Shown: positions 4,375 through 31,965, counted from the stretch's first letter. The stretch is DNA of 37,497 bases from Myxococcota bacterium (GCA_028284295.1 JANQSB010000622.1:1-37497), one strand, 5' to 3'. Notes: a model not told the origin generated them from the letters alone. Translations and numbers: made by a program.

Positions 4375-5054
4375 GGCCCGGCCTGACCTTCGAGGTCCCG
4401 CGCTCGCTGCCACGCGAGACCACCTGGTTGTCGAAGGGCGAGCGGGCCCGCCTCGCGTCGATGCGCTTTCCGCGCCGTCGACACGACTTCCGGCTGGGGC
4501 GCTGGACGGCGAAGCGGGCCCTGGCACGCCGCTTCGGCCTGTCGGAGAGCCTGCCGTCGCTCGGGGAGATCGAGATCCGCGCCGGCGAGCGCGGTGCACC
4601 GCGAGCCTTCCTCGGCGGTGAAGCGATGGACTGCGACGTCTCGCTCAGCCACCGCCAGGGCGCGGTGTTGTTCGCGATCGGGCCCCGCGGCTCGCGGGTG
4701 GGCTGTGACGTCGAGTGGATCGAGGAACGAAGCCAGGCGTTCGTGGCGACCTTCCTTTCCGCTGCCGAGCGCCGCTGGCTGTCCGGTCTGTCGCCCGCGG
4801 CACGATCCGGTGGTGCCAATCTCCTGTGGAGTGCGAAGGAGAGCGCCTTGAAGGCGCTCGGAACGGGCCTCGACGTCGATCTGCGACAGGTCGAGGTGCG
4901 ACTGTCGGAGGACGCGGGACAGGGTGTTCGCGTGGTGATTCCGTGTCGCGGCGAATCCCTCTCGGGGTGCTGGGGTCAGCAGGGAGATTGGCTGTGGACA
5001 CTGGCCAGTCCGGTTCCCCTGGAAGTTCCGACGATGCCGATGTCGGCCAGGTGA
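4371..5054 (+). CDS. Sfp-type 4'-phosphopantetheinyl transferase
   Basis: Motifs SLSH, VGCDVE and WSAKESALKALG. GTG start overlaps the carboxylase stop (GTGA), indicating translational coupling. Confidence 0.9.
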   Translation: MRPGLTFEVPRSLPRETTWLSKGERARLASMRFPRRRHDFRLGRWTAKRALARRFGLSESLPSLGEIEIRAGERGAPRAFLGGEAMDCDVSLSHRQGAVLFAIGPRGSRVGCDVEWIEERSQAFVATFLSAAERRWLSGLSPAARSGGANLLWSAKESALKALGTGLDVDLRQVEVRLSEDAGQGVRVVIPCRGESLSGCWGQQGDWLWTLASPVPLEVPTMPMSAR

Positions 5055-5056
5055 CA
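5041..5056. promoter_or_regulatory. CRP/FNR-family-like box TGTCG-gccagg-TGACA, centred at -41.5 of a leaderless promoter (-10 TAGGAT at 5078-5083)
   Basis: The palindrome extends to CGATGTC...GACATCG. Its centre (5048.5) is 41.5 nt before the ATG at 5090, which lies 6 nt after TAGGAT. Confidence 0.6.
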
Positions 5057-5089
5057 TCGAACGGCGCGTCGCTGGGATAGGATCGATGC

Positions 5090-6379
5090 ATGGGGAATCC
5101 CGATCCCTTCGAGATCGACGGTGAGCTCCACCCCGCGTTCGATGGCGTGGCGAAGTGTCTGAAGGAGCAGCTCCAGTCGAGTCCGGGTGGCGCTGCGGTC
5201 TGCGTCTACCACCGCGGCCAACGGGTCGTCGACATCTGGGGTGGCTCGCGCGACGCTCGTCAAAGGCCCTGGCGATCCGACACCATGGCCCCGAGCTTCT
5301 CGACCACCAAGGGCGTGGCGTCGACGCTGCTCCACATGATGGTCGATCGCGGTCTGCTCGACTACGACGATCGCGTCTGCGAGCACTGGCCGGAGTTCGC
5401 GCAGGCGGGCAAGGAGGAGATCACCGTCCGCCACGTCCTGGCCCACCAGTCCGGGCTCTACCACATCCGGCAGATGATCGATCGGGCGGATCGCATGCTG
5501 GACTGGGAGTACATGGTCCGCGCGATCGAGCGCGCCGAGCCCCTCCACCCGCCCGGAACCCGAACGGGCTACCACGGGCTCACCTTCGGCTACCTGGTGG
5601 GCGAGATCCTGGCCCGGGTGACCGGGACGCCCTTCGCCATGCTGGTCCGCAAGGAGCTGGCGGACCCGCTCGGTCTCGACGGTCTCTACATCGGTGCACC
5701 CCGGGAGGTGCTCGATCGGGCGGCGGAGCTGATCTGGCCGAAGCGGAACATCCTGACGCCCGTACTGCCCTTCGGCATGACGAAGCCGCTGCTCCGGGTC
5801 TTCTCGCCGGTGGTGCGGGAGGCGACGCGCCTGCTCGGTGCCCGGCTCGACATCGAGAGCATCATCGACTCCCTGGCGCCGCGCGGGATCGGGCACTTCG
5901 ACTTCAGCGCGAACGCGACGCTCCAGGCGTCGATCCCCGCCGCGAACGGCCTCTTCACCGCGCGCTCCCTCGCCAAGGTCTATGCGGCGTTGGCGGGTCG
6001 CGGCGAGGTCGACGGTGTCCGTCTGCTCTCCGAGGCGACCCTGCGAGCGGCGACGACCCGACAGCGCGGCGGAAGTGACGGGCTCACGGTGATTCCCTTC
6101 GACATGCGCTGGCGGCTCGGCTACCACGGCGTCTTCACGACGATCGGCAGTCCGAGGCACGCGTTCGGGCACTTCGGGTTCGGAGGCTCCGGGGGCTGGG
6201 CGGACCCGAGCCGTGAGCTCTCCGTCGCCCTGATCGTCAATTCGGGGATCGGAACCCCCTTCGGCGACGTCCGCATCGCGCGACTCAGCGCGGCGGTCCT
6301 GCGTTCGGTCGACGCGCGACCGCGTGCGCCCCGAACGGCGGGACAGCCCGTCCAGTCCATGGCACTCGCCGGGGGCTGA
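5090..6379 (+). CDS. Serine hydrolase/esterase, beta-lactamase (family VIII esterase) fold
   Basis: SxxK motif FSTTK, LAHQSGL, YHGLTFG and C-terminal GHFGFGGS. No Shine-Dalgarno, so probably leaderless. Confidence 0.9.
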   Translation: MGNPDPFEIDGELHPAFDGVAKCLKEQLQSSPGGAAVCVYHRGQRVVDIWGGSRDARQRPWRSDTMAPSFSTTKGVASTLLHMMVDRGLLDYDDRVCEHWPEFAQAGKEEITVRHVLAHQSGLYHIRQMIDRADRMLDWEYMVRAIERAEPLHPPGTRTGYHGLTFGYLVGEILARVTGTPFAMLVRKELADPLGLDGLYIGAPREVLDRAAELIWPKRNILTPVLPFGMTKPLLRVFSPVVREATRLLGARLDIESIIDSLAPRGIGHFDFSANATLQASIPAANGLFTARSLAKVYAALAGRGEVDGVRLLSEATLRAATTRQRGGSDGLTVIPFDMRWRLGYHGVFTTIGSPRHAFGHFGFGGSGGWADPSRELSVALIVNSGIGTPFGDVRIARLSAAVLRSVDARPRAPRTAGQPVQSMALAGG

Positions 6380-6396
6380 GCCGGGAGGGGACCTGG

Positions 6397-7266
6397 ATGT
6401 CCGTGGGGAGCATGTGTCGCAGGCCGGCGCGCACGGCCAGCCCACGAGACACGGCCCAGAGCGCTGCGCGCCGGATGGGTGCGGAGCGCGTCGGGGCGCT
6501 CGTGTTGGTCGAGCGGGAGCGACCGGTGGGCATCGTCACCGACCGCGACCTGGCGCTGCGGGTCGTCGGCGAGGGCCATGCAGCCTCCTCGATCCGGGTG
6601 AAAGAGGTGGCGACGCCGTCGCCGGCCGTTCTGGGCGAAGAGGCGTCCCTGCAGCAGGCTGCCCAGGAGATGCGCGCGGCACCGGCGCGCCGCATCCCGG
6701 TGGTGGACGATCGGGGGCATGTCGTCGGCATTCTGGCGGCGGACGACCTGGTGCGTCTCGCGGCGCGAGAGCTCTCGGCGCTGGCCGAGGTCGCTTCCGA
6801 GCAGTCGCCCCGCGGCCGGCCGGTGGCCGCAAAGGGACTCGACGCGGTGCGCGAGGCGAACCACTACGCGAAGCCGGTCGAGACGGTGGGGCTGGAGGTG
6901 CCGGTGCGCGCGGTGGCCGAACGGATGCGATCGAAGCAGATCGGCTGCGTGATCGTCGTCGACGACTCCGGACTTCCGAGCGGAATCGTCACCGACCGCG
7001 ATCTCACGCGTCGTGTCGTGGGGGAAGACCGCGATCCGAACACCACGGCGGTCGTGGAGGTGATGAGCCGCTCGCTGCTCTGTCTGGATGCGGGTGAGCC
7101 CCTGCAGCGCGTCGTGGAGGCCATGAGCGAGATCGGCGTTCGCAGGATCCCCGTGCTCCGTGACGGGGCGCTCGCCGGGATCGTCACCTACGACGACGTC
7201 CTCGTCGCTCTCGGGAGCGAGTTGCATGCGCTCGGTGAGTCGGCGCGGAGCGCGATCGTCGGCTGA
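6397..7266 (+). CDS. Stand-alone CBS-domain protein (two CBS pairs)
   Basis: Repeated motifs GIVTDRDL (twice), RRIPV (twice), GILAADDL and GIVTYDDV. GGAGG SD upstream. Confidence 0.9.
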   Translation: MSVGSMCRRPARTASPRDTAQSAARRMGAERVGALVLVERERPVGIVTDRDLALRVVGEGHAASSIRVKEVATPSPAVLGEEASLQQAAQEMRAAPARRIPVVDDRGHVVGILAADDLVRLAARELSALAEVASEQSPRGRPVAAKGLDAVREANHYAKPVETVGLEVPVRAVAERMRSKQIGCVIVVDDSGLPSGIVTDRDLTRRVVGEDRDPNTTAVVEVMSRSLLCLDAGEPLQRVVEAMSEIGVRRIPVLRDGALAGIVTYDDVLVALGSELHALGESARSAIVG

Positions 7267-7282
7267 GGGCGCGGCCCGCCGC

Positions 7283-9730
7283 TCAGGGGATCGGGCGCAG
7301 CTTCCAGATCCGCTGCGCGTACTCCTCGATGGCGCGATCGGAGGAGAAGGCACCCATCCGCGCGATGTTGAGTCCGGCGCGGCGCGTCCAGGCGTCGTGA
7401 TCGTGGAAGTCCGTCGAGACCTGCTCCTGGGTCTGCCGGTACGACTCGAAGTCCGCGAGCACGCTGTAGGGATCGCAGTCGTCGAAGAGGTGGCGCAGCA
7501 GCGGGGCGAAGAGATCCGGCTGCTGGGGGCTGAAACGGTTGCTGCTCAAGGCCTCGACCACGCGCGCCAGGGCCGGGCTCTCGCGCACGAAGGCGTGCGG
7601 GTCGTAGCTCGGCCGGAGCTCGCGCACCTCGTGGGCGCCGAGGCCGAAGATGTAGAGGTTCTCGGGGCCCACCGCCTCCAGGATCTCGATGTTGGCGCCG
7701 TCGAGGGTTCCGATGGTGATTGCCCCGTTGAGCGCCAGCTTCATGTTGCCCGTTCCCGAGGCCTCGAAGCCGGCCGTCGAGATCTGCTCGGAGAGATCCG
7801 CGGCGGGCACGATCACCTCGGCCCGTGAGACACAGTAGTCGGGTACGAAGACCACCTGCAGCTGCTCGCGCGCTCGCGGCTCGTCGCTCACTCGCCGACC
7901 CACGGCGATCAGGAGCTGGATCACCAGCTTGGCGAGGAAGTAGCTGGGCGCCGCCTTGCCGGCGAAGATGCAGCTGCGGGGAGCTTCGAGCTGTTCCCCG
8001 TCGTCGATCACGCGCAGGTAGAGATGGATGGAGTGGAGCGCCGCGAGGAGCTGGCGCTTGTAGAGGTGGATCCGCTTGACCTGCACGTCGAAGAGGGAGT
8101 CGGGGTCGAGCCCGACTCCCGTCGTTTCTCGCACGAGCTTCTCGAGCCGGACCTTGTTGGAGCGCTTGACCCGGGAGAGCTCCTCCCGGAAGGCGGGGTC
8201 TTCGACGGCCGGCTCGAGCTCCGAGAGCTCCTCCATGTCGCGGATCCACCCGGTGCCGATCCGCTTCGTGACGAGCTCCGCCAGCTCGGGATTCGCCTGG
8301 AGGAGCCAGCGTCGAGGGCTGATCCCGTTGGTGACGTTCTGGAAGTCGTCGGGCCGCAGCTCGGCGAAGTCGGGGGCGAGCAGGGAGCGCACCAGGTCGG
8401 AGTGCAGTTCGGAGACGCCGTTGATGGTGTGGCTTCCGATGATGGCCAGGTTCGCCATGCGGATTCGCTGGGGCTGGCTCTCCTCCACCATCGACATGCG
8501 CCGGACACGGGAGAGGTCGTTTCCGAAGCGCGAGCGGATGGAGCCGAGGAAGCGCTCGTTGAGCTCCTCGATGATCTGGAGGTGTCTCGGGACGACCCGG
8601 GCGAGCAGGGGCCGTGAATAGCTCTCGAGGGCTTCGGGAAGCAGCGTATGCGTGGTGTATCCGAGCATCTCCCGGGTGAGCTCCGCAGCGCGCTCGAAGT
8701 CGAGCCCTCGTTCGTCCACGAAGAAGCGGATCAGCTCCGGGACGGCGAGCGCCGGGTGCGTGTCGTTGAGCTGGATGGCGACGCGGGAGGGAAGGGCGTC
8801 GAGATCGGCGTGCTCGTCCATGTAGCGACGCATCAGGTCCCGAATCGCGCAGGCGACGAAGAAGTACTCCTGCAGCAGGCGCAGCTCGCGCCCGGCTTCG
8901 GTGGAGTTGGAGGGATACAGGAGCTTCGAGATCCGCTCCGTGGCGATCTTCCGCTCGAAGGCTCGCAGGTAGTCGCCGGAGTTGAAGAGATCGACGTCCA
9001 TCTCCGCGGCGGTCTCGGCGTTGTAGAGCCGAAGCCAGTTCACCGTCCGTCCGCCATAGCCGATGACCGGAAGATCGTGGGGAACGCCGATCATCACGCT
9101 GAAGTCGACCCAGGCGCCGGGCCCGCCGTCGGCGGGGCGTCCGTCGACGCGACCGTAGACCGGTACCGGGACGGCGCGCTCGGGCCGGGGGATGAGCCAG
9201 GGCGATCCGAGCCGACGCCAGGCGTCGGGCCTCTCCTCCTGGGCGCCGTTCGCGATGACCTGGCGGAAGAGGCCGTATTCGTAGTTGATGCCGTAGCCGA
9301 AGCCCGCGTAGTCGCGCGTCGCGAGGGAGTCGAGGAAGCAGGCCGCCAGGCGACCGAGGCCACCGTTGCCCAGCCCGGCGTCGGGCTCGGCCACGATCAG
9401 GGCGTCGAGATCGCATCCGAGCGTGCCCAGCGCCTCCCGCACGGGCTCCAATGCGATGAGGTTGCGAAGCGAGGACTCGAGGCTGCGCCCCAGCAGGAAC
9501 TCGAGGGAGAGGTAGTAGAGCCGCTTGGAGTCGTGCTCCCGGATCCGGTCTTCGGTGGCGAGCATGCGATCCACGGCCCAGCCCCGGCACACCGTCGACG
9601 CGGCGACGAGCAGATCGTGCGTGGTGGCGTCGTCGAAGGACTTGCCGCTTCCGTAGCGGACCTGCCGTCGCACGTCCTCGGCGAACTCGCCGGCCTCGAG
9701 CGCTCCCGTCTCCTCGGGCGTCAGGTTCAT
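7283..9730 (-). CDS. glgP: Glycogen/starch phosphorylase (GT35)
   Basis: GLGNGGLGRLAACFLDS, QLNDTHP, QVKRIHLYKRQLL and the PLP-Lys motif EASGTGNMK. Confidence 0.97.
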   Translation of the reverse strand: MNLTPEETGALEAGEFAEDVRRQVRYGSGKSFDDATTHDLLVAASTVCRGWAVDRMLATEDRIREHDSKRLYYLSLEFLLGRSLESSLRNLIALEPVREALGTLGCDLDALIVAEPDAGLGNGGLGRLAACFLDSLATRDYAGFGYGINYEYGLFRQVIANGAQEERPDAWRRLGSPWLIPRPERAVPVPVYGRVDGRPADGGPGAWVDFSVMIGVPHDLPVIGYGGRTVNWLRLYNAETAAEMDVDLFNSGDYLRAFERKIATERISKLLYPSNSTEAGRELRLLQEYFFVACAIRDLMRRYMDEHADLDALPSRVAIQLNDTHPALAVPELIRFFVDERGLDFERAAELTREMLGYTTHTLLPEALESYSRPLLARVVPRHLQIIEELNERFLGSIRSRFGNDLSRVRRMSMVEESQPQRIRMANLAIIGSHTINGVSELHSDLVRSLLAPDFAELRPDDFQNVTNGISPRRWLLQANPELAELVTKRIGTGWIRDMEELSELEPAVEDPAFREELSRVKRSNKVRLEKLVRETTGVGLDPDSLFDVQVKRIHLYKRQLLAALHSIHLYLRVIDDGEQLEAPRSCIFAGKAAPSYFLAKLVIQLLIAVGRRVSDEPRAREQLQVVFVPDYCVSRAEVIVPAADLSEQISTAGFEASGTGNMKLALNGAITIGTLDGANIEILEAVGPENLYIFGLGAHEVRELRPSYDPHAFVRESPALARVVEALSSNRFSPQQPDLFAPLLRHLFDDCDPYSVLADFESYRQTQEQVSTDFHDHDAWTRRAGLNIARMGAFSSDRAIEEYAQRIWKLRPIP

Positions 9731-9751
9731 GCTCTCCCCCCGGCGCCGAGT

Positions 9752-11926
9752 CTAGTCGCGATCTGCGGAGGCCGGGAAGCGCTTCCGCATGGGCTCGACA
9801 CCGGCTCGGAGCTCGGGAGAGAGCTCTTCCAGGGATCGGGACATGCGGCGGGACCAGCTCCGGTGGGAGGTGAGCGGCACCCCCGGAAGGTTCACCGGAT
9901 CCCGCTCTTCCGCCAGGTCGTCGAGGGAGACGCTGGCGAGGATGCACGGGGTCGCCGCGAGGAAAGCGTGGACCGCGTCTCGCAGGCCGGCGGAATCGGG
10001 CGTGTCGCCGCCGCCCTCGGGAGCCAGGAAGCCCTCGGTGCGCAGCGCGGCGACGAGCCCCTCCTTCGCCTGCCGGCGTTCCTCGTAGGCCGGCGACACG
10101 GCGGGATCCGGGTCGACACCGTTGGCGGCGGCGCGCAGGTCGAGGTCGCTTCCCTGGAAGTGGCCGGCGAGGGGCGCGAGATCGTGGGTCGAGACGCTCG
10201 CCAGCGCCCGGGGCGGGTAGTGGGAGGTGGGTCGGAAGTGGTGGTCGTCGTTCTCGAAGTAGACCACCGACGAGCGCAGCAGTCCCCAGTCGGCCAGCAT
10301 GCCCGGGAGCTCCGGCGGCAGGGTCCCCAGGTCTTCCGCGACGAGCACCGTGTCCTGCCGACGGCTCTCCAGGGCCAGGATGCCGAGCAGGTCGTCGGCC
10401 CGGTAGCTGACGTATGCGCCCTCGCTACCGGGACGCCCCTCCGGGATCCAGAAGAGGCGCAGCAATCCCATGGCGTGGTCGATGCGGAGCGCGCCGGAGT
10501 GTGTGCAGGCGGCTCGCACCAGCTCCGACCAGGGACGATAGGCCTGGGCCCGCAGCCGATGTGGATCGAAAGGGGGAAAGCCCCAGTCCTGGCCTTCCGG
10601 CGCGTAGGCGTCGGGCGGTGCACCGACCTGGGCACCGGCAGCGAAGAGGTCCTGGGCCATCCAAGCGTCCGCCGAGGCCCGGGCGGAGCCCAGCGCGAGG
10701 TCCTGGTAGAGACCCAGGGTACAGCCGGCGTCTCGCAGGGAGCGGTCGGTCTCCGCGAGCTGGCGGTCGAGCTCGAACTGCAGCCAGCAGCGGAAGTCGA
10801 CCTCGTCCGCGTGGTCCCGGTGGAAGGCGGCGACCGCGGTGCTGTCGGGGTCGCGCAGGGGGGCGGGCCAGCGCCACCACGCAGAGCCGGGCTCGTTGCC
10901 GAGTCGGCCCCGGTGCTCGGCCAGGGTCTCCCAGATCGCGAAGTCCCGCAGCGTCGAGCCCTCGCGATCGCGGTAGTCCGCGTAGGCCTGCTTCCGGCTC
11001 GGCGACGCGCAGCGAATGAAGGTGGCATACAGCTCGCGGAGCACGGGCAGCATCGCTTCGAGCACCGCCTCGTGATCGATCCGGGCGGCGGCCTCGAGCG
11101 CGACCCGACGCGCCCGCCGCTGCGGGTCGTCGAGGAGCTTGCGGGCGCCCGAGCTCCGGGCGAGCTCCGGCACCGCCTCCGGGTCCAGGTAGAGGATGTT
11201 CCGGTAGAGCCGGCTCGACGGACTGTACGGCGAGTAGTCCAGTCCCCGATTCGTGACCGCATGCAGGGGATTGATGCCGACGAACGCCGCCCCCGACTCT
11301 CCCGCCATGCGCCCGAGCTCGCGCAGCTCGCGAAGGCCCCCGTGCCCCCAACCGCCGTCTCCGCCGGAGCGGAGCGTGTAGGCGTTGGCCCAGATTCCGA
11401 AGGCCCGATCTCCGATCCGCTCCTCGGGCTGCAGGCTGGTGCGCGGCGCCATCACCAGGCGCTGGCTCCCGCGCCGACTGCCGCCCGGAGCGTCCAGCTC
11501 GATCCGGATCTCGTGGTATCCCAGCGGTGGCTTGCAGGGCAGCGGGAGGTCGACGACGGCCTGTTCGCGTGACTCGGGCAGGGAACCCCGGGAGCTCTCG
11601 CACTCTCCGCTCTCGAGTCGCAGCTCGATCCGGTAGTCGCGGGCGTCGCCGAGGGCGGCTGCGTTCAGACGCAGCTCCGGACGGCCCTCGGCCCACTCGC
11701 GCCAGACGAGGACCGGCTCCAGGAGGCGCTCGCGCGCTTCGCGATCCAGGGCATCGAGAGCGCGCGTGGCGCCGGCCTCGGTGCTCCCGTCGTGGCCCAT
11801 GGCGGCCACCAGGGCTTCGCGGGTGGCGTCCGAGGTGAGTCGGTCGCTTCCGTCGACGTCGCGATAGGTCTCGAGGATCCCCAGCCGCTGCGAGAGCGTG
11901 CGAAGCGCTCGTCGCTCGCTGCTCAT
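9752..11926 (-). CDS. malQ: 4-alpha-glucanotransferase (amylomaltase, GH77)
   Basis: SPYSPSSR, GAPPD, LRIDHAMG, AEDLG and STHD. The real start is the ATG at 11926 (MSSERR), overlapping the glgB stop (ATGA). The ORF-track extension to 12472 overlaps glgB. Confidence 0.95.
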   Translation of the reverse strand: MSSERRALRTLSQRLGILETYRDVDGSDRLTSDATREALVAAMGHDGSTEAGATRALDALDREARERLLEPVLVWREWAEGRPELRLNAAALGDARDYRIELRLESGECESSRGSLPESREQAVVDLPLPCKPPLGYHEIRIELDAPGGSRRGSQRLVMAPRTSLQPEERIGDRAFGIWANAYTLRSGGDGGWGHGGLRELRELGRMAGESGAAFVGINPLHAVTNRGLDYSPYSPSSRLYRNILYLDPEAVPELARSSGARKLLDDPQRRARRVALEAAARIDHEAVLEAMLPVLRELYATFIRCASPSRKQAYADYRDREGSTLRDFAIWETLAEHRGRLGNEPGSAWWRWPAPLRDPDSTAVAAFHRDHADEVDFRCWLQFELDRQLAETDRSLRDAGCTLGLYQDLALGSARASADAWMAQDLFAAGAQVGAPPDAYAPEGQDWGFPPFDPHRLRAQAYRPWSELVRAACTHSGALRIDHAMGLLRLFWIPEGRPGSEGAYVSYRADDLLGILALESRRQDTVLVAEDLGTLPPELPGMLADWGLLRSSVVYFENDDHHFRPTSHYPPRALASVSTHDLAPLAGHFQGSDLDLRAAANGVDPDPAVSPAYEERRQAKEGLVAALRTEGFLAPEGGGDTPDSAGLRDAVHAFLAATPCILASVSLDDLAEERDPVNLPGVPLTSHRSWSRRMSRSLEELSPELRAGVEPMRKRFPASADRD

Positions 11927-14138: not shown

Positions 14139-14142
<4 letters not shown>
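11923..14142 (-). CDS. glgB: 1,4-alpha-glucan branching enzyme (GH13)
   Basis: IYEVHLGSW, SWGYQVTGYFAP, DGLRVDAVASM, AEEST and LSHDEVVHGK. Confidence 0.97.
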
Positions 14143-16229
<2,087 letters not shown>

Positions 16230-16238
16230 GCGCGCAGT

Positions 16239-19132: not shown

Positions 19133-19148
19133 TGACGTCCAGGCGACA
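19133..19148. promoter_or_regulatory. Degenerate copy of the box, TGACG-tccagg-CGACA
   Basis: One mismatch to consensus. Upstream of DUF2238, whose extended -10 (TGgTACCGT) is at 19192-19200. Confidence 0.35.
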
Positions 19149-19220
19149 CTCTTGTCAGATGGCCCGCTCGTCTGGGCGCCTGGCCGCACGGTGGTACCGT
19201 CGTCCTCACGGAGGACGGCG

Positions 19221-19844
19221 ATGGGGATCTTCCGCGATCCGGTCGTCGCCGCGGCCTGGACGAGCTACGGCGTCGTGTGGTTGGCGCTGGCGATCGTACC
19301 GACCGACCGCGGGGACTGGCTCCTCGAGAACCTTCTGGTCTTTGCCGCATGGGGTGGGCTGGTTGCCCTTCACCGTCGTCACCCGCTGTCGCGCGGGTCG
19401 AGCTGGGCGGTCGCCGCCTTCCTGCTCCTGCACGCGTTGGGCGCGAACTCCACCTACTCGCAGTCGCCGATCGGAGCCTGGGCGATGGGCCTCTTCGGCC
19501 TCGAGCGCAACCCCTACGACCGGGCGGTGCACTTCGCGTTCGGCCTGCTCCTGGCGGTTCCGCTGCGACAGCTCGCCGAGGAGGCACTGGCCTTGCGCCG
19601 AAGCCTGGCCGTCGCGTTCTCCGTCATGGCGGTGCTGGCGAGCGGGGCCGTGTACGAGATGATCGAATGGTGGGCGGCCCACGTGGTGAGCCCCGAGCTC
19701 GGCATCGCGTTCGTGGGTGCCCAGGGCGACGTGTGGGACGCCCAGAAGGACACGAGCGCAGCGCTCGTCGGTGCGATCCTGGCCCTCGGCGGAGAGTGGC
19801 TCGCGAAGGGCTGGCGCCGACGACCTCTCCGCATTCTCGGATGA
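19221..19844 (+). CDS. DUF2238/YjdF-family inner membrane protein
   Basis: DWLLEN, RNPYDRAVHF, YEMIEWW and GAQGDVWDAQKD. GGAGGA SD before the ATG at 19221. Confidence 0.88.
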   Translation: MGIFRDPVVAAAWTSYGVVWLALAIVPTDRGDWLLENLLVFAAWGGLVALHRRHPLSRGSSWAVAAFLLLHALGANSTYSQSPIGAWAMGLFGLERNPYDRAVHFAFGLLLAVPLRQLAEEALALRRSLAVAFSVMAVLASGAVYEMIEWWAAHVVSPELGIAFVGAQGDVWDAQKDTSAALVGAILALGGEWLAKGWRRRPLRILG

Positions 19845-21683: not shown

Positions 21684-21687
21684 ACCC

Positions 21688-23661: not shown

Positions 23662-23738
23662 CCCGACTGGATGCTACCGGATCGTCGGTCGCCTCGACCG
23701 ATCGCACCATGCACCGGGATCGCTTCGGGTCCTTCGCC

Positions 23739-23747
23739 TGCTAGCCT
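23739..23747 (+). promoter_or_regulatory. Extended -10 element TGcTAGCCT for the PEP-CTERM gene
   Basis: TGnTANNNT about 50 nt upstream of GGAGG SD/GTG. Confidence 0.35.
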
Positions 23748-23798
23748 CGAGAGCGGGCGCCCGCGAGCCCCGAAGTCGAGCGTGGGAGGTCGCAGACC

Positions 23799-24578
23799 GT
23801 GAAGCGCAGTCGGAGCCTGGGTGCGCGTTGGTCGTTGGTCATCGTGGCGCTCGTTCTGTCGGGCCCCGCTCGCGCGGGCGACACCGCGACCGTCGAGTGG
23901 GGCGCGACCTTCCTGACCTATGGCGGCGGCGTGAACCCCGGTCCCGAGCTGCCGATCGTGAGCGGCGAGCCCGTCGAGATCGTCGCCGTGTTCGACCCCG
24001 ACGCTGCCGAGAACCCGGCGACCGTGGGCAACCCGACATTCGGCCTGTACACGGACGCGCTCGTGTCGCTGGAGATCTACTTCGTCACGAGCGAGGTCCT
24101 GTACCGCTTCGGATCCGGCGGCGCCGCGGCCAGCCAGATCAACCTGACCAACGACTCCGGCATCCCGGGTGTGACTCTCGACGACCAGCTGAGCGTCAGC
24201 AGCGCCGATCCGCTCGAGGCACCGATGGTCCTGGGCGCAGACGTCGTGGCGGCGTCGGTCGTGATCGCCGAGTCGATCAATAGCGTCCAGGGTGGCGGCA
24301 CCCCGGACCTGATCGAGTCCGCCTCCGCACTTCCCGCGGACGGCATAGACCTCGACTCGCCCGGCTTCCTCGTCTCCAACGCCGCGATCACCTACGACGG
24401 CTTCGACCCGACCTCCGTCATCTTCACCGACGTCACGGAGCTTCCCGAGCCGGGCGCGGGCGTCGGGGCTCTGGCCGGGCTGCTCGTCGTGAGCGTGCTG
24501 AGCCGCTCCGGGCGCCCGGACCGGCTGCTCGGGTCGCGCCCTACTCGCGGTCGAAGAGCTTCTCGGCGGCGTCGCTGA
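23799..24578 (+). CDS. Secreted acidic protein with PEP-CTERM sorting signal
   Basis: Signal peptide ending PARA. Acidic Ser/Thr-rich body. LPEP (24441-24452), then a hydrophobic helix and an Arg-rich tail. Confidence 0.8.
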   Translation: MKRSRSLGARWSLVIVALVLSGPARAGDTATVEWGATFLTYGGGVNPGPELPIVSGEPVEIVAVFDPDAAENPATVGNPTFGLYTDALVSLEIYFVTSEVLYRFGSGGAAASQINLTNDSGIPGVTLDDQLSVSSADPLEAPMVLGADVVAASVVIAESINSVQGGGTPDLIESASALPADGIDLDSPGFLVSNAAITYDGFDPTSVIFTDVTELPEPGAGVGALAGLLVVSVLSRSGRPDRLLGSRPTRGRRASRRRR

Positions 24579-25318: not shown

Positions 25319-25334
25319 TGTCGGCCCGGCGACA
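25319..25334. promoter_or_regulatory. Perfect box TGTCG-gcccgg-CGACA between divergent promoters
   Basis: Extends to ATGTCG/CGACAT. About -44.5 relative to + strand -10 TACCCT (25359-25364). Overlaps the spacer/-35 zone of the - strand -10 TACCTT (25310-25305). Confidence 0.55.
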
Positions 25335-25392: not shown

Positions 25393-26814
25393 ATGCGTCA
25401 GCAACCGCAGTGGCAGGTGGCGGGGTGGATTCCGCTCGTGGCCGGACTCGGCTGGCTCCTCGCCGGCATGAGCGGCGGCTGGCTGCAGATGTTCTTCTGC
25501 CTCGGCCCCGGCGTCCCGCTCCTCGCGACGGGCGGTTCGAAGCTCCTGTGGCCGGGCGATCCCCGCATCCAGCAGTTCGCCGCCCTCGGTGGTGTGATCG
25601 GTGTCGCGGTCGCGATCCCCGGGCTCGTCTTCATCGGCTTCGGTGCCTCGCTCCTCCTGGGTCTGCTCTCGGTCGCCTCCTTCGTCGCAGCGGGCTCCGT
25701 CTCGGTGAAGCAGGAGCCTCACTTCGAGGGTGTTCCGGAGCTGCAGCCGTCGCTGTCGCTCTACGCGAAGGTCGCGGTCGACGATGCCCTTCTCGCGACC
25801 ATGCAGTTCGGGATGGGGATGCCCTCGGGCCAGGAGCCCGAGGTGATCGAGCGCGAGGTGCATGCGGCGCGCGAGCTCTTCGACGGCAAGGGCTGGCTCG
25901 AGAAGCCCGCGAGCTACCACCAGGAGCCGCCGCCCCTCGAAGCTCCGCGAATCCGCGACCGGGAGACGCGCGTGCGCACCGGCCGCCTCCGCTACGAACA
26001 CCTTTCCTTCGAGAGCGAGTACGCGCCCCATCCCGACGAGCCCGGCCGCGCGCGCTGGCTCGGGTACGAGCGCAACCGCACCGCGCACGCGTGGGTGGTG
26101 CGACAGCCGTCCTCCGAGCCTCGCCCCTGGCTCGTCTGTATCCACGGATACCGGATGGGGGTTCCTGCGTTCGACATCAGTGCCTTCGACCCGGGCTTCC
26201 TCGCGAAGTTCGGGCTGAACGCGATCTTCCCGGTGCTGCCTCTGCACGGTCCCCGCAAGCTCGGACGCCGGAGCGGTGACGGCTTCCTGGCGGGCAACGT
26301 GCTCGACTCGGTGCACGGCGAAGCCCAGGCCATGTGGGACATCCGACGCATGGTCGACTGGGTACGCCGCCAGGGGGCGCCGGTCATCGGCGTCCACGGC
26401 CTGTCGCTCGGGGGCTACAACACCGCTCTTCTGGCGTCGGTCGAGCGAGGCCTCGCCTGTGCGATCCCGGGTATACCGGCCACCGACTTCGCGCGCCTCG
26501 TCTGGCGCCACGCGCCCCCGCTGCAGCTCCGCTACATGGAGCACCGCGGCGTGGTGCACGACGTCGTCGCGGAGGTGATGCGGGTGATCTCGCCGCTCGC
26601 CCTCGAGCCGCTCGTCGAGAAGAGCGGTCGCGCCATCTACGCCGGTGTCGCCGACCGACTCGTTCCGCCCGATCAGGTCCGCGACCTGTGGCGCCACTGG
26701 GAGGAGCCCGAGCTCGTCTGGTACCAGGGCGGCCACATGAGCTTCCAGTGGGAGCACGGCGTACGCAGCCTGGTGGCGCGCACCCTGCGCAGCCGATTGC
26801 TCGACCGCGGCTGA
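25393..26814 (+). CDS. Membrane-anchored alpha/beta hydrolase (Rv2627c/ABHD18-like)
   Basis: About four N-terminal TM helices. CIHGY, LPLHGPR, nucleophile elbow GLSLGG, DRLVP and GGH. GGGAG SD before the ATG at 25393. Confidence 0.83.
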   Translation: MRQQPQWQVAGWIPLVAGLGWLLAGMSGGWLQMFFCLGPGVPLLATGGSKLLWPGDPRIQQFAALGGVIGVAVAIPGLVFIGFGASLLLGLLSVASFVAAGSVSVKQEPHFEGVPELQPSLSLYAKVAVDDALLATMQFGMGMPSGQEPEVIEREVHAARELFDGKGWLEKPASYHQEPPPLEAPRIRDRETRVRTGRLRYEHLSFESEYAPHPDEPGRARWLGYERNRTAHAWVVRQPSSEPRPWLVCIHGYRMGVPAFDISAFDPGFLAKFGLNAIFPVLPLHGPRKLGRRSGDGFLAGNVLDSVHGEAQAMWDIRRMVDWVRRQGAPVIGVHGLSLGGYNTALLASVERGLACAIPGIPATDFARLVWRHAPPLQLRYMEHRGVVHDVVAEVMRVISPLALEPLVEKSGRAIYAGVADRLVPPDQVRDLWRHWEEPELVWYQGGHMSFQWEHGVRSLVARTLRSRLLDRG

Positions 26815-26819
26815 GGAAC

Positions 26820-26840: not shown

Positions 26841-26842
26841 TG

Positions 26843-29017
26843 CTACCGCTTCGGGCTCGCGCCCTTGCCCTTCGCGCGAGGGAAGTAGGTCGTCTCCACG
26901 TAGTCGCCCAGCATGCGTTCGGCGCTGAAGCGCATGGCGCTGGTGCGGATCGAGGCCTTCACCCGTTCCATCCAGCCGCGCGGAATCCCGTCCTTGTCCC
27001 GATCGTAGAAGAGCGGGAGCACCTCCTTCTCGAGCGTGTCCAGGAGCATCTGCGCGTCGCGATCGTCCTGGGCCTCGTGATCGGCGTCGACGTCACCCGG
27101 GAGCGACCAGCCCCCGCAGTCGTCCTGCGCCTCGACCCACCAGCCGTCGAGCACGCTGAGGTTGAGGGCGCCATTCATGGCGGCCTTCATGCCGCTGGTC
27201 CCGCTCGCTTCGAGGGGCGGGCGCGGCAGGTTCACCCAGACGTCACAGCCGCTCACCAGCCATTGCGCCATGCCCATGTCGTAGTCGTGCAGGTACGCGA
27301 TGCGCTCGCCGACGTGTGGCGCCCGACGGGCCTTGAACAGCTGCTGAACCACGTGCTTGGCGGAGTCGTCCGAGGGATGGGCCTTCCCGGCCAGCAGGAT
27401 CTGCAGCGATCGGGGACCGTCGATGAGCTTCAGGGCGCGCTGCAGGTCCCGGCTCACCAGGTTGAGTCGCTTGTAGGTGGCGAGCCGGCGCGCGAAGCCC
27501 ATCGTCAGGCGATCGGGGTCGAAGGCGGTCTCCGCGAGCTCGACGTAGTCGGCAGCCTCACCCCGAGCCAGGCGATCGAGGGTCGCGCGCTCGCGGATGT
27601 ACTCGACGAGTCTCGACCGCAGCTCGCAGCGGACCCGCCAGAGCTCCGCGTCCGGCAGGTCGGCGATCTTGGCCCAGGTGTCCGGATCGCGCTTGCGGCG
27701 CTCCCAGTCCTCTCCCAGGTGCTCGGCCAGGAGGCGTCGCACGGGCTCGGCCATCCAGGTGCTCACGTGTACCCCATTGGTGACGTGTGCGAGCGGTACC
27801 TCGTGGTCGCTGCCGGCGCCGAAGGCCGGGCGCCAGATCGAACGGGCCACCTCTCCGTGGCGCTCGCTCACACCGTTGGCGGCGCGACTGACCCGCAGCC
27901 CGAGGGCGGTCATGCCCGGTGCGTCTTCGGTGTTGCCCGCCTGGATCCGAGCCAGGTCGAGAATCTCCGCCCACCCGGTGCCGAGCCGCCGGTCGAGGCC
28001 GCCGAAGACCCGCATCAGGTCTTCGGCGGGATAGCGCTCGTTGCCGGCGGGGACCGGTGTGTGCGTCGTGAAGACGGTGCGGGCGCGGGCGCTCTCGAAG
28101 GCTTCCTCGAACGAATCCCCGCCCTCTACCCGAGTCGCCGCCCATTCGAGGGGCGCGAGGGCCGGGTGTCCTTCGTTGAGGTGCAGCACCTCGGGCTCGA
28201 TTCCCAGCGCGCGCAGGGCGCGTGCACCCCCGACCCCGAGCAACGCGTACTGCGCGAGCCGCGCGACGGGATCTCCCACGTAGAGCTGTGACGCGATCCA
28301 GCGATCGATCGGCTTGTTCTCGGGAAGGTCCGTATCGAGCAGGTAGAGGGGAACGCGGCCGATGTCGAAGCGCCACATCTGGACCGCCACGTCGCGGCCG
28401 CGAATCGGCACGTGGATCACGAGCGGGTCGGTGCCGTCGCGGGTCACGATCGCGCCGGGCAGTCGGGGCGGGTCGACGTCGACCCAGTACTCGTGCTGCC
28501 AACCCGACTCGTCGAAGCGCTGTCGGAAGTAGCCCTGCCGATACAGGAGTCCGATGGCGACGAGGGGGAGGCCCATGTCGGACGCGGCCTTGAGCAGATC
28601 GCCGGCCAGCACGCCGAGTCCACCCGCATAGACGGGAAGCGAGACGTGCACGCCGTACTCGGCGCACAGGAAGGCCACCGGGTGTTCGGGATCGCCGCGA
28701 TTCCCGTCCGGGGTACGAGCCAGCTCGTCCCGGATGGACTCCTCGAGGGAGTAGGCCCGGCCGATCAGCTCGCGGTCGCCGGCCGCGCGCTCGAGGGACA
28801 CCATCGGGGCTTCTTCGAGCAGTCGAAGCGGATTCCGTCCGCACGCTTCCCAGCGGTGCGCGTCGATGGCTGCGAACAGCTCGTCCCCACCGAGTGCCCA
28901 GCTCCACCGGTAGTTGAACGCGAGACGCGCGAACGGAGCCAGCGCCGAGGGAAGCCGCGACGCGAGCTCGTCGGCTGCCCGTCTCAGATCCTCGGTACCG
29001 GGGGGGTGGCGAAGCAT
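26843..29017 (-). CDS. glgP: Second alpha-glucan (maltodextrin/glycogen) phosphorylase, actinobacterial/thermophile-type subfamily
   Basis: AEYG...YAGGLGVLAGD, HLNEGH, FTTHTP, ARRLATYKR, GKAHP and EASGTSGMK. ATG at 29017 with GAGGAG SD. Confidence 0.94.
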   Translation of the reverse strand: MLRHPPGTEDLRRAADELASRLPSALAPFARLAFNYRWSWALGGDELFAAIDAHRWEACGRNPLRLLEEAPMVSLERAAGDRELIGRAYSLEESIRDELARTPDGNRGDPEHPVAFLCAEYGVHVSLPVYAGGLGVLAGDLLKAASDMGLPLVAIGLLYRQGYFRQRFDESGWQHEYWVDVDPPRLPGAIVTRDGTDPLVIHVPIRGRDVAVQMWRFDIGRVPLYLLDTDLPENKPIDRWIASQLYVGDPVARLAQYALLGVGGARALRALGIEPEVLHLNEGHPALAPLEWAATRVEGGDSFEEAFESARARTVFTTHTPVPAGNERYPAEDLMRVFGGLDRRLGTGWAEILDLARIQAGNTEDAPGMTALGLRVSRAANGVSERHGEVARSIWRPAFGAGSDHEVPLAHVTNGVHVSTWMAEPVRRLLAEHLGEDWERRKRDPDTWAKIADLPDAELWRVRCELRSRLVEYIRERATLDRLARGEAADYVELAETAFDPDRLTMGFARRLATYKRLNLVSRDLQRALKLIDGPRSLQILLAGKAHPSDDSAKHVVQQLFKARRAPHVGERIAYLHDYDMGMAQWLVSGCDVWVNLPRPPLEASGTSGMKAAMNGALNLSVLDGWWVEAQDDCGGWSLPGDVDADHEAQDDRDAQMLLDTLEKEVLPLFYDRDKDGIPRGWMERVKASIRTSAMRFSAERMLGDYVETTYFPRAKGKGASPKR

Positions 29018-29047
29018 GACTGCTCCTCGTGGCTTCGTCGGCTTCCC

Positions 29048-29091
29048 ATGATACAACGGCTCGCCCGGACCCAGAGGTCACCGGCTCGACG
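29048..29091 (-). promoter_or_regulatory. Promoter of second glgP: -10 TATCAT (29053-29048) plus degenerate box GGTCA-ccggct-CGACG (29076-29091) at -42.5
   Basis: Core GTCR-N6-YGAC is intact and both outer bases differ. Spacing is 1 nt longer than at glgC. Confidence 0.45.
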
Positions 29092-29246
29092 CGAGAGGGC
29101 GTCGGGTCGAACCCTGCGGGGTCTCCGTCGCGTGGTGTCGATCCCGCGCCATGCCGCGAATCGCCCGTCCCGGCCCGAACCAGCGCAGGCGCCCGTCGCC
29201 TCTCGTCGGGCTGCGGCCGCCCGCGGTCGGCCGCGGGTGCCGGATC

Positions 29247-30293
29247 CTACTGCCAGCACACCCGGGTGAGCGCGCTTCGCAGTGGCCGGCTGGTGGCGAC
29301 GCAGCTGGATCCGAGGATCGTCCGTGAGCCGTGGTCGAGCTCGGCCAACGCGTCCAGGGTTCCGACGAGCTTGTGGGTTTTGCGGATCAGCCGCGTGCAG
29401 GAGCCCTCCGCCAGGAGCCAGGCGTGGGCGGCGTCGGCGTAGCGGCGCAGCGCGGCTTCGACGGGGCCCCGAAGTCCACGTCGTTCGACCTCCGAGAGGC
29501 GAGGCCAGGCGACGCGAAGCCCGTGCAGGGCGTCGAAGTCGATCCCCTGCGGGAAGCGGCCGCCGAAGATGCGACTGCCCCAGAGACCCGTTCGACGCTG
29601 GAGGCGGACGATGCCCGCGACGGCGCGCGCCGGGTGCGGGATGCTCCGACCGAGGCGATCGTAGAGCCACCAGAAGTGCGCGGCGCCTCCCAGGTCGAGA
29701 GTCGTCGGCTTGCGCAGCACGCGGTCGTGCAGTGCGCGCTTCCAGAAGCCCGTCGCCGGGTCGACACGGGCGTCGAGCGCGGCCAGCAGCGCTTCGCTCC
29801 AGTCTTCCGGGAGGGACAGGCCTTTCGGCGCGTCGAGCACCGCCGCGGCGGCACCCGCTGCGTGGCTGCCGGTCCAGACCTGGGACCAGCGGAAGCCGTC
29901 GAGCCAGGCGTCGGTGGAGACGCGGCTGGCGAAGAGGGACTCCGCGTAGCGGAGGGGGTGCAGGGGGCAGGCGCCCAGGAGCACGAGAGCGCCGGTGGCG
30001 AACGCGGTCGCATGGGGAACACCGTGCCCGGCGAGCAGGGATCGGTCGAACCATCCCGAGTCACGGTCCTGGGCTGCCTGGATCCGCGACGCCCAGGCCT
30101 CCCGCTCCGGAACCGCAACCTCGTCGAGGTCGCCGAGGATCCAGAGCGCGTAGGCGGCATCGGCATCGCCGTAGAGGTCGACCTCGCCGTCGGGGCGGCT
30201 CGCCCAGCCCGCATCGCCGCGGCGAAACCCGTCCAGGAAGCTTCGCGCCTGGCCGCAGAAGGGCTCGAAGTCGAGAGGCCAAGCCTGGCTCAA
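29247..30293 (-). CDS. Hypothetical protein with QW-like (prenyltransferase/squalene-cyclase alpha-alpha barrel) repeats
   Basis: Three repeats: AQDRDSGWF, RVDPATGFW and LQRRTGLW. TTG start after GGAAGAG; the start is uncertain. Confidence 0.65.
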   Translation of the reverse strand: MSQAWPLDFEPFCGQARSFLDGFRRGDAGWASRPDGEVDLYGDADAAYALWILGDLDEVAVPEREAWASRIQAAQDRDSGWFDRSLLAGHGVPHATAFATGALVLLGACPLHPLRYAESLFASRVSTDAWLDGFRWSQVWTGSHAAGAAAAVLDAPKGLSLPEDWSEALLAALDARVDPATGFWKRALHDRVLRKPTTLDLGGAAHFWWLYDRLGRSIPHPARAVAGIVRLQRRTGLWGSRIFGGRFPQGIDFDALHGLRVAWPRLSEVERRGLRGPVEAALRRYADAAHAWLLAEGSCTRLIRKTHKLVGTLDALAELDHGSRTILGSSCVATSRPLRSALTRVCWQ

Positions 30294-30359
30294 GTCGGGC
30301 TCTTCCGGCGATCGTGGGTCCGAAGGCCGGTCGGCTCCTGTGCTCGGCGTGCTCCGCCC

Positions 30360-31625
30360 CTACGCGTAGGTGGCCCTCGTGCCGGCCGCATCCTCGCCGC
30401 TGGCGGTCACCTCCGCCACGCTCGCGCGCAGGTCGGCGATGTACTCGTCCATCACCTCGGCGTGCGCGGGCGAGAGCATCAGGTGGATGGCGCGGGGCTC
30501 GGTGGTGAGGCCCGTGAACCAGCCGCGTCCCTTCATGCGCGCCCAGACCGCGAAGGGGTCGATCGTCTCCGACCCGTAGATCATGAGACCGAGCTGCGGA
30601 TCGCCGTAGGTACACAGCTCGGGCATCTCGTCGATGGCCGCCTCGAGCGCCGCGCGCGCCTCGCAGACCTGGCGGGCCTTGTCGCGGTAGCCCTCGAGAC
30701 CCAGGTAGTTCATCACCGCCCAGGCCCCCGCGATGGCACCTCCTGGCCGCGTGCCCGCCGCCGTCGGCGTGGTCATGCCTCCCGCCGGCCAGTCGTCGAA
30801 GACGAAGAGCTGATGGGCGCGCTGCGCTTCGCTGCGATGGAAGACCGTCGATGCACCCTTCGCCGCGTACCCGTACTTGTGCAGGTCCGCCGAGATCGAC
30901 GCGACCCCCGGCACCTCGAAGTCGAAGGGCGGAACCGCGACGCCGTTCATGCGCGCGAAGGGCGCGAAGTAGCCCCCCACGCAGGCGTCCACGTGGAGCC
31001 AGAGCTCGTGGCGCTCGGCCAGCTCGCCCAGCGCCTCGATGGGATCGACCAGCCCGTAGGGGAAGCACGGCGCCGAGCCCACCAGCATCAGGGTGCGCTC
31101 GCTGACGGCTCGCTCCATCGCCTCGACGTCCGCGAGATAGTCGTCGGTGACGGGTACGCGCAGCGTCTCCAGCCCGAGATAGTGCGCCGCCTTGTCGAAG
31201 GCGGGATGCGCGGAGCGGGGGAGCACGATCTGCGCGCCCTGCGTGTCGACACCGCGGGCACGTGCCTGATCGCGGCAGGTCTTGACCGCCATCAGGATGC
31301 TCTCGGTACCGCCGGAGGTGATGTTGCCGCAGGCGCCCTCGGGCCCGTGCAGCAGCGAGAGCCCCATGTCGATGACGTCGGACTCCATGCGCTTCAGGCT
31401 GGGGAAGGCCGCCGGACCCAGTGCGTTCTCGCTCTGGTAGAGGGCGTAGGCCTCCTTGGCGACGGAGAGCACGTCCTCGCCCGCGTTGAAGACGTAGACG
31501 GCCGTGCGCGCGGCGCGCCAGTCGACGTCGTCGCCGCCCAGGGCGACGAGCTGCTCGCGCAGGGTCGACCAGCCGGTGCCCTTCTCGGGCAGGGATCGGC
31601 GCGGTGCGGAGTGCGGATCCGTCAT
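30360..31625 (-). CDS. PLP-dependent enzyme, sphingosine-1-phosphate lyase/group II decarboxylase family
   Basis: TSGGTESI, HPAFDKAA, GSAPCFPYG, LHVDACVGG, PLP-Lys ADLHKYGY and GTRPG. ATG at 31625 with AGGAGG SD. Confidence 0.9.
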   Translation of the reverse strand: MTDPHSAPRRSLPEKGTGWSTLREQLVALGGDDVDWRAARTAVYVFNAGEDVLSVAKEAYALYQSENALGPAAFPSLKRMESDVIDMGLSLLHGPEGACGNITSGGTESILMAVKTCRDQARARGVDTQGAQIVLPRSAHPAFDKAAHYLGLETLRVPVTDDYLADVEAMERAVSERTLMLVGSAPCFPYGLVDPIEALGELAERHELWLHVDACVGGYFAPFARMNGVAVPPFDFEVPGVASISADLHKYGYAAKGASTVFHRSEAQRAHQLFVFDDWPAGGMTTPTAAGTRPGGAIAGAWAVMNYLGLEGYRDKARQVCEARAALEAAIDEMPELCTYGDPQLGLMIYGSETIDPFAVWARMKGRGWFTGLTTEPRAIHLMLSPAHAEVMDEYIADLRASVAEVTASGEDAAGTRATYA

Positions 31626-31931
31626 CGTCTCCTCCTGTCGAGCTTCGGCTGCGTTCGAGCGGACTCGAGCCGGAACGAGGCCGGACACGCGCCCTGCGGG
31701 CCAGGGCCGCTCGTATGGACGAGAGCGTAGCTGCCCGCGCCGGCACGCTGCATTCACCGGTCTGGTGCCCGGGAGAGGCCGACTCCGGGCTTGCGGCGCA
31801 CCCGTGTCACGAGCACGGTCGTGCCGGCTGCCAACGGGACGGCGGCACGCGGCTTCGGGATGGGTGCGATTCGGGATCGTCGAGAAGCGACCCCGGGCAG
31901 ACCGGGAACTCGTCGCTCCCCGCGGAGCCTT

Positions 31932-31965
31932 CGACCCCGGTGTCGGCTGGCCGACACCGGGGTCG
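31932..31965. promoter_or_regulatory. 34-bp near-perfect palindrome CGACCCCGGTGTCGGC-tg-GCCGACACCGGGGTCG whose core is the box TGTCG-gctggc-CGACA (31941-31956)
   Basis: 16-bp perfect arms in the divergent intergenic region. A candidate -10 (TACGGT) for the downstream gene is at 32028-32033. Confidence 0.6.

Follow-up and report, generated by a model that had tools for sequence, protein, structure and literature searches.

We found that a 16-bp palindromic box, TGTCR-N6-YGACA, recurs close to putative promoters in a 37,497-nt stretch of DNA from a Myxococcota bacterium (GCA_028284295.1 JANQSB010000622.1; hereafter, the window). The window is the entire contig C364 of genome G000, a metagenome-assembled genome (MAG) of 5,853,934 bp in 718 contigs, with 90% completeness and 3% contamination. 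The boxes are probably operators of one dimeric CRP/FNR factor that is encoded outside the window and acts as a class-II activator of a carbon-storage regulon; the best candidate for this factor is a protein encoded on contig C469 of the same genome (hereafter, the C469 protein). An earlier reading of the window from its sequence alone (the sequence-only reading) had proposed such a regulon. It is partly supported by our results. Its core appears to be right, in that the boxes point to a CRP/FNR-type carbon-storage regulon, to a regulator gene outside the window and, at the two best promoters of the window, to class-II geometry; it was overstated with respect to a histone-like gene, a degenerate copy at 29076 and the certainty of activation.

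The four perfect copies listed in the sequence-only reading, at 5041-5056, 18998-19013, 25319-25334 and 31941-31956, are all exact. By comparison, 100 dinucleotide shuffles of the window gave a mean of 0.18 copies, and none of them gave four. Allowing up to one mismatch, 10 matches were found in the window versus 3.39 expected. Genome G000 has 16 perfect copies in total, and four of these fall within the 37.5-kb window, which is 0.64% of the DNA (binomial p = 2.9e-6). Furthermore, for nine of the 16, half or more of the box is outside called genes, compared with 16.6% non-coding DNA (p = 3.6e-4), an intergenic enrichment that had been suggested as a check of the regulon. Gene calls were made with a simple caller based on GC content at third codon positions (GC3), which gave 4,755 genes and 83.4% coding DNA. 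The 16 bp of the box form a 5-6-5 inverted repeat whose core is TGT...ACA, and the extended consensus is gGTGTCGsCyrGsCGACACc. A mobile repeat was also considered and rejected: the flanks of the 16 copies are alike for about 2 nt only, with nothing further out, and thus the boxes are not part of a repeat element.

Position and conservation of the boxes

Under the class-II rule, the sites of CRP/FNR-type activators are centred at -41.5. When a -10 hexamer is taken as positions -12 to -7, a gap of 21 nt places the box at -49 to -34, with its centre at -41.5. Exactly this gap was found, with respect to predicted -10 hexamers, in G000 at the promoters of the esterase gene, glgC and ppdk, and in G022, a genome of a different genus in the same family, at those of the esterase gene and glgC. 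In the window, box 5041-5056 (TGTCGGCCAGGTGACA) ends 33 nt before the ATG of the esterase gene, and a predicted -10 hexamer read from the sequence, TAGGAT, lies 21 nt past it on the plus strand (5078-5083). The transcription start site (TSS) predicted at about 5090 coincides with the A of this ATG, which follows the hexamer by 6-7 nt in both genomes; thus, the esterase mRNA is predicted to be leaderless in G000 and G022 (locus L087). Box 18998-19013 (TGTCGCCCAGACGACA) ends 57 nt upstream of the start codon of glgC, and the predicted -10 hexamer of this promoter, CATAAT (18971-18976, minus strand), lies 21 nt from it, with a predicted TSS at about 18964. Box 25319-25334 (TGTCGGCCCGGCGACA) precedes the probable ATG (25393) of an alpha/beta hydrolase gene by 58 nt; here the distance to the predicted hexamer TACCCT is 24 nt (centre -44.5), and at a degenerate copy at 29076-29091 the distance to the predicted hexamer TATCAT is 22 nt (centre -42.5).

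The centres given in the sequence-only reading (-41.5, -41.5, -42.5 and about -44.5) are thus those read here, and the -35 boxes are as poor as it had stated: of the hexamers 17 nt before the -10 boxes of the esterase gene, glgC and ppdk (CATCGA, CACCGG and CACCCG), none matches TTGACA at more than one of six positions. Its statement that all boxes lie at promoter regions holds for the four perfect copies, which are promoter-proximal, with two qualifications. Box 5041 overlaps the final 14 nt of a phosphopantetheinyl transferase (PPTase) gene (4371-5054), and box 25319 counts as non-coding on condition that translation of the hydrolase begins at ATG 25393, before which there is an AAGGGAG ribosome site. 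At the glgC, esterase and ppdk promoters, a box at -41.5 would stand in for the -35 element, and the factor would act there as a class-II activator touching RNA polymerase.

The spacing was also analyzed in a pooled set of 81 perfect boxes (162 oriented flanks) from five regulator-bearing genomes (G000, G022, G004, G010 and G030). Hexamers of the form YANNNT peaked at offsets of 21 to 24 nt past the box (8, 4, 5 and 5 hits, respectively), so that 22 of the 99 hits over 50 offsets fell there versus 6.7 expected, in 21 distinct site-orientations. The strict form TANNNT gave 8 hits at the same offsets versus 1.6 expected. The distance peak proposed earlier as a check was therefore present.

The sites of the window were ranked with a position weight matrix (PWM) over 37,478 positions. 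A one-mismatch box at 19133-19148 (TGACGTCCAGGCGACA), which is in the same divergent region as box 18998, with its centre 135 bp from that of the latter, scored 17.1 (rank 5) although it was not in the training set of the PWM; the next best score was 10.0. Of the two degenerate copies that had been proposed, this one therefore stands. The other, at 29076-29091 upstream of the second alpha-glucan phosphorylase gene (26843-29017, minus strand), is present with two mismatches, in the outer T and A, and its score of 4.2 (rank 60) is like the background, so that the proposed link to this second glgP is not supported. A second intergenic copy 60 nt away (TGTCGATCCCGCGCCA, 29136-29151) has one mismatch, in the core GACA, and scored 8.2 (rank 12). 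Homologues of this phosphorylase do have upstream boxes in two other MAGs (L097 and L119). As a separate observation, box pairs were seen in two relatives, with starts 18 nt apart at G030:C14:45807-45840 and 80 nt apart at G004:C210:25616-25711.

Orthologues of glgC were found in only six of 40 relatives. In G022, where glgC is 81% and the regulator 71% identical to those of G000, the glgC promoter consists of a box (TGTCGGTCACGTGACA), 21 nt and CATAAT; this is the layout of the window, though the 21 nt differ. We examined all 22 perfect boxes of this genome. The esterase orthologue (76%) has a box, 21 nt, TAAGAT and an ATG 7 nt on, in place of the TAGGAT found at 21 nt in G000. Boxes are also present upstream of gap (82%), the aldolase gene fba (72%; it follows ppdk in G000), an RnfB-like gene (77%) and a nucleoside phosphorylase gene, whose counterpart in G000 has a weaker box (PWM 16.4). 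Furthermore, G010 (regulator 46%) has boxes upstream of the ppdk, acyl-CoA dehydrogenase and RnfB-like orthologues, and G004 has one upstream of the nucleoside phosphorylase orthologue. A perfect box was found upstream of alpha/beta hydrolase homologues at one of six loci (G023). For box 31941, conservation was found at none of six loci of the decarboxylase on its left and none of seven loci of the small basic protein on its right (PWM of at least 12, within 400-500 nt upstream); the link to a 'histone-like' gene in the sequence-only reading is thus not supported. Judged by these comparisons, conservation backs the glycogen and esterase-CBS units firmly and the hydrolase unit weakly, and the other two of the five units claimed in the window not at all.

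Outside the window, perfect copies in G000 lie upstream of a paralogous esterase gene (C311) and the polyphosphate kinase gene ppk1 (C416), between the divergent gap and ppdk-fba genes (C469:1499), and between an acyl-CoA dehydrogenase gene and the divergent gene for an RnfB-like Fe-S protein (C469:17635). Another (C697) is upstream of a gene for a 408-aa protein without a Pfam match, the C-terminus of which is LuxR-like by eye. The copy at C701:8625 precedes a second acyl-CoA dehydrogenase gene by 358 nt and is inside a called open reading frame (ORF) that looks spurious. What the boxed genes have in common is the breakdown of lipids, gluconeogenesis, and the storage of glycogen and polyphosphate. 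The carbon-storage programme inferred from the window extends beyond it to gap and ppdk-fba, ppk1, two acyl-CoA dehydrogenase genes and a second esterase gene. We propose that the factor governs a small regulon of about 10-15 sites. Its members would be glgCAXB-malQ-glgP; the esterase-CBS unit and the paralogous esterase gene; ppdk-fba and gap; ppk1; and the genes for acyl-CoA dehydrogenases and the RnfB-like Fe-S protein. The alpha/beta hydrolase gene is only a possible member.

Candidate regulator and its gene neighbourhood

The factor was expected from the sequence-only reading to be encoded outside the window. Indeed, no CRP/FNR gene was found in the window; the 15 HTH_Crp_2 and 18 cNMP_binding matches of the genome are all on other contigs. 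The inventory of CRP/FNR proteins that had been suggested gave seven G000 proteins with both domains, one of which, the C469 protein, has a fitting recognition helix. It is 235 aa long (G000:C469:5426-6133, minus strand) and matches PF00027 cNMP_binding (5.0e-19) and PF13545 HTH_Crp_2 (1.1e-13). Arg-Gln is found in the recognition helix (SRQTLNQ) of this protein only; the proteins of C294, C299, C711 and C12 have Arg-Glu and that of C701 has Arg-Val, the divergent C479 protein being outside the comparison. Both residues, R190 and Q191, are invariant in an alignment of 11 orthologues. The best solved relative of the C469 protein is Mycobacterium tuberculosis CRP (E 2.7e-23), in which Arg188, Glu189 and Lys193 align to R190, Q191 and Q195. 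As described for M. tuberculosis, Glu189 of CRP contacts 4G/13C of a 16-bp motif, and Cmr, which is without this Glu, favours 4C/13G (PMC5758884). Thus, Gln in place of a Glu that reads G at motif position 4 would fit a TGTC rather than a TGTG half-site, and the C469 protein may well bind the boxes.

The phosphate-binding cassette of the C469 protein, R91-E92-S93, is invariant in the 11 orthologues, and the corresponding residues of M. tuberculosis CRP are Arg-Thr-Ser. This Arg-Glu-Ser cassette suggests that the effector sensed by the protein may not be cyclic AMP (cAMP), or a cyclic nucleotide at all. In NCBIfam, the protein is below the cut-off of every equivalog model. Among the 120 listed of 285 homologues (E <= 1e-10), names are generic or missing, and the five with an organism label are all from MAGs.

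In G000, the distance between the gene of the C469 protein and the end of the ppdk-fba unit is 1.1 kb, and in G022 the regulator gene is directly upstream of gap, with a box between them. To survey the neighbourhood more widely, we used 34 loci (L096-L129), mostly of Myxococcota or Deltaproteobacteria MAGs, of the 64 found in a scan of GTDB species genomes; the other 30, mostly Nitrospirota with 22-41% identity, were left out of the survey. In 16-17 of the 34 loci, no more than 4 kb separates the regulator gene from a gene that matches best to one of the following target or window genes of G000: acetyl-CoA carboxylase (ACC) in seven loci, ppdk in three, gap in two, ppk in one or two, the second phosphorylase in two, the CBS protein in two and the small basic protein in one. 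One of the ppk neighbours has a near-perfect box 39 nt upstream, and both phosphorylase loci are boxed. The order PPDK - regulator - ACC or regulator - ACC recurs in L100, L112 (G010:C538), L102, L103, L106, L114 and L117, and in G000 pieces of the order PPDK - regulator - ACC are split over contigs C469 and C364. It was also observed that in G030 a perfect box (C1:178694-178709) lies inside the coding region of the regulator orthologue itself.

Orthologues of the regulator (45-71% identity), all with Arg-Gln, were found in 10 of the 40 relatives. Altogether, 150 boxes and 20 control patterns were counted in the 55 Mb of the 11 regulator-bearing genomes, compared with 200 and 88, respectively, in the 144 Mb of the 30 other genomes; by the Mann-Whitney test, the two groups differ both in boxes per Mb (p = 0.004) and in the excess of boxes over control patterns (p = 1.4e-4). 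The same-genus relatives G001, G002 and G003 have neither a regulator orthologue nor glgC, and their ACC and PPDK matches are only 41-59% identical, whereas PPDK orthologues in more distant genera are 74-80% identical. The low identity of ACC and PPDK, together with the absence of the regulator and glgC in these relatives, suggests either an accessory module that would travel with the regulator or a bin of mixed population. Whichever of these holds for G000, G022 has the regulator and the boxes within a single MAG.

A broader reading, which we put forward tentatively and which is rather less probable than not, is that the Arg-Gln/Arg-Glu-Ser subfamily of CRP/FNR proteins in uncultured, largely marine Myxococcota is a dedicated master switch of a co-inherited module for carbon and energy storage, that it responds to a ligand other than cAMP, and that regulator and regulon are gained and lost together. 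The joint gain and loss is suggested by the same-genus genomes that have neither the regulator nor glgC nor close ACC and PPDK orthologues. Equally tentatively, the module may comprise the ACC-regulator-PPDK cluster, the glycogen operon, ppk1, the esterases and the acyl-CoA dehydrogenases.

Alternative explanations

Several observations weigh against the boxes being class-II operators of the C469 protein. The home-made GC3 caller overlooked the PPTase gene and misplaced the start of the hydrolase gene. Every -10 box is in effect a guess from the consensus; orthologous promoters contribute to the peak at 21-24 nt, which is hence not made of independent cases; 141 of the 162 oriented flanks have no -10-like hexamer at this distance; and the nearest such hexamers at gap, ppk and box 31941 give other distances. 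The footprint at glgC that had been suggested earlier was obtained in G022 (box, 21 nt and CATAAT), but the other five of the six orthologue loci have no comparable box, including that of G010 (80% identity), where an imperfect box lies 294 nt upstream. The gene of the C469 protein has no autoregulatory box in front of it. Among the regulator-bearing genomes, G026 is devoid of perfect boxes and G029 and G031 contain just four and six, respectively, and boxes outnumber control patterns about twofold even where the regulator is missing. The genomes compared are related and not independent, so that the p-values for the association with the regulator overstate the case. Finally, because G000 is a MAG of 718 contigs, the regulator and its putative targets are on different contigs.

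If the same factor bound the same boxes mainly as a repressor, its dimer would lie over the -35 region and bar RNA polymerase until it is released by an effector. A box at -49 to -34 overlaps the polymerase footprint, the many flanks without a -10-like hexamer at 21-24 nt would be in keeping with repression, and CRP/FNR proteins act both ways, as Rodionov et al. predict for HcpR from the positions of its sites (PMC545781). However, the three best promoters combine a good -10 with a nearly absent -35 match, as is usual for promoters that depend on an activator; two genomes have kept a spacing of exactly 21 nt while the sequence between box and hexamer diverged; and the peak of -10-like hexamers suits the class-II register. 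We thus regard a mainly repressing role as unlikely.

Another regulator, whether from among the six CRP/FNR paralogues or from a different family, might occupy the boxes, with the C469 protein as a bystander; in our estimate this is still less likely. The Arg-Gln helix is found in none of the assigned paralogues (four with Arg-Glu and C701 with Arg-Val, C479 being unassigned), the C701 type occurs in G008, which has seven boxes versus two control patterns and no glgC, and in many MAGs the orthologue of the C469 protein is encoded beside target genes. In the window itself there is no HTH_Crp_2 or cNMP_binding match, and Pfam revealed no DNA-binding domain in the 29 proteins scanned. What speaks for another regulator is the missing autoregulatory box and the few or no perfect boxes in some genomes with an orthologue, such as G026. 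With regard to the former, no box was found within 350 nt upstream of any of the seven CRP/FNR genes of G000 (best PWM 4.7).

Chance, codon bias or hairpin palindromes without a regulatory role may be considered as well. The genome total of 16 copies is unremarkable, since among 60 composition-matched palindromes the motif ranks 15th by total count, though fourth by non-coding count, and the codon bias towards GTCG/CGAC is a fair worry for the raw frequency of the motif, but it leaves the location of the copies unexplained. Box 31941 (TGTCGGCTGGCCGACA), which has the top PWM score in the window, lies within a perfect 13-2-13 palindrome of 28 nt (31935-31962), longer than that at any other site and able to fold; no T-run follows this palindrome on either strand. 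Against this explanation stand the preference of the copies for non-coding DNA, their clustering in the window, their conservation at fixed spacing in orthologues, and the tie to the presence and neighbourhood of the regulator; we reject it as very improbable.

Least probable of all, to the point of being negligible, are upstream activator sequences of a sigma-54 enhancer-binding protein: such proteins are abundant in Myxococcota and the box fits their consensus, TGT-N10-ACA, but TGGCAC-N5-TTGCW with up to two mismatches gave seven matches versus 7.9 expected, that is, chance, no correctly oriented -24/-12 match was found downstream of any box, and at the best promoters the boxes are 33-58 nt from start codons, too near for an upstream activator sequence.

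Other features of the window and comparison with known systems

The window begins with the gene for a multidomain ACC (1-4374, plus strand), cut at its 5' end by the start of the contig. This ACC is a eukaryote-like single chain with biotin carboxylase C-terminal, biotinyl, ACC_central and carboxyltransferase domains. Its stop codon is overlapped by the start of the PPTase gene (4371-5054, plus strand) in the sequence GTGA (4371-4374). The product of the esterase gene (5090-6379, plus strand) is a family-VIII esterase/beta-lactamase-fold hydrolase (Pfam Beta-lactamase, 2.7e-69); its nearest NCBIfam model is the mycobacterial esterase LipL (2.5e-80, below the cut-off of the model). It is followed by the gene for a protein with four CBS domains (6397-7266, plus strand; Pfam CBS, 6.8e-44) and, on the minus strand, by the glycogen operon (7283-18940), in which glgC (17693-18940), glgA, glgX, glgB, malQ and glgP (7283-9730) were identified by Pfam. 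The one-mismatch box 19133 is next to the gene for a DUF2238 membrane protein (19152-19844), and the alpha/beta hydrolase gene extends from its probable start at 25393 to 26814.

Box 31941 has as its left neighbour the gene for a decarboxylase dependent on pyridoxal phosphate (PLP) and similar to MfnA (30360-31625, minus strand), and as its right neighbour the gene for a small basic protein of 127 aa, rich in Lys, Arg and Ala and without a family match (32073-32456, plus strand). The PLP decarboxylase gene belongs to a cluster of polyamine/beta-alanine type (30360-35875), together with those for a protein of the deoxyhypusine synthase family (33570-34640), S-adenosylmethionine decarboxylase (34621-35043) and aspartate 1-decarboxylase (35465-35875). 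Four ORFs with a strong GC3 signal (657, 259, 348 and 307 aa), at 21688-24578, 29247-30293 and 32520-33443, have no useful match in Pfam or NCBIfam.

Our results provide a testable map of how carbon and energy storage may be regulated in a myxobacterial lineage that has not been cultured, with an operator, a candidate regulator, about 10 target promoters and a predicted specificity residue. The one sequencing run listed as containing DNA of the window is from a coral metagenome, which may be its source, and no RNA run was listed. The C469 protein may illustrate how a CRP-type protein is naturally retuned from TGTG to TGTC half-sites by a single helix residue (Glu to Gln), and such retuning would let several paralogues share a genome without cross-talk. 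This is not a new kind of system; regulons have been reconstructed in this way for other CRP/FNR proteins. No published account of this regulon was found in the available text of the literature on MrpC, CooA, CRP and glycogen regulation in Myxococcota.

The CooA helix carries Arg-Gln. The resemblance of the box to the CooA and MrpC consensus sequences, pointed out in the sequence-only reading, is found in print. CooA of Rhodospirillum rubrum and Desulfovibrio, a CRP/FNR protein that senses carbon monoxide (CO), has the consensus TGTCGGCNNGCCGACA (PMC545781); box 31941 is identical to it as printed there, and the other boxes are close. Carboxydothermus CooA-1 (E 5e-20) and R. rubrum CooA (6.6e-13) are among the solved relatives of the C469 protein, which is no nearer to CooA than to mycobacterial CRP or NtcA. 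However, the targets here are glycogen, gluconeogenesis, polyphosphate and lipid catabolism genes and not coo genes, and the CO dehydrogenase catalytic subunit (TIGR01702) had no match in the 90%-complete G000. A defining feature of a CooA regulon is thus lacking, and the identification of the boxes with such a regulon was rejected.

MrpC of Myxococcus xanthus, a CRP/FNR protein of starvation-induced development in the same phylum, has the motif TGTYN8RAC, obtained by chromatin immunoprecipitation and sequencing, with 1608 putative sites (PMC4320627). The form TGTC-N8-GACA is a subset of this motif. In contrast to the about 16 sites here, MrpC is described as binding hundreds; the word 'glycogen' does not occur in the main text of that paper. 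In M. tuberculosis, motif positions 4/13 separate the paralogues Cmr (Rv1675c) and CRP (Rv3676), and Cmr is reported to favour 4C/13G as found here (PMC5758884). Cmr differs from the C469 subfamily in having a Pro in the place of the invariant Gln and, in addition, an Arg-rich loop, and the regulons differ as well.

With Escherichia coli cAMP-CRP and Corynebacterium GlxR, the system shares the two-domain CRP fold, the 5-6-5 palindrome, the -41.5 geometry as predicted here and a probable control of central carbon metabolism. The E. coli glg genes, too, are stimulated by cAMP-CRP. The differences are the half-site, which is TGTCG and not TGTGA, the small size of the regulon and the Arg-Glu-Ser cassette. 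By analogy, the system appears to be of the CRP/FNR kind, in no named subfamily, and most resembles a carbon regulator of the CRP/GlxR type with a half-site like that of CooA and Cmr.

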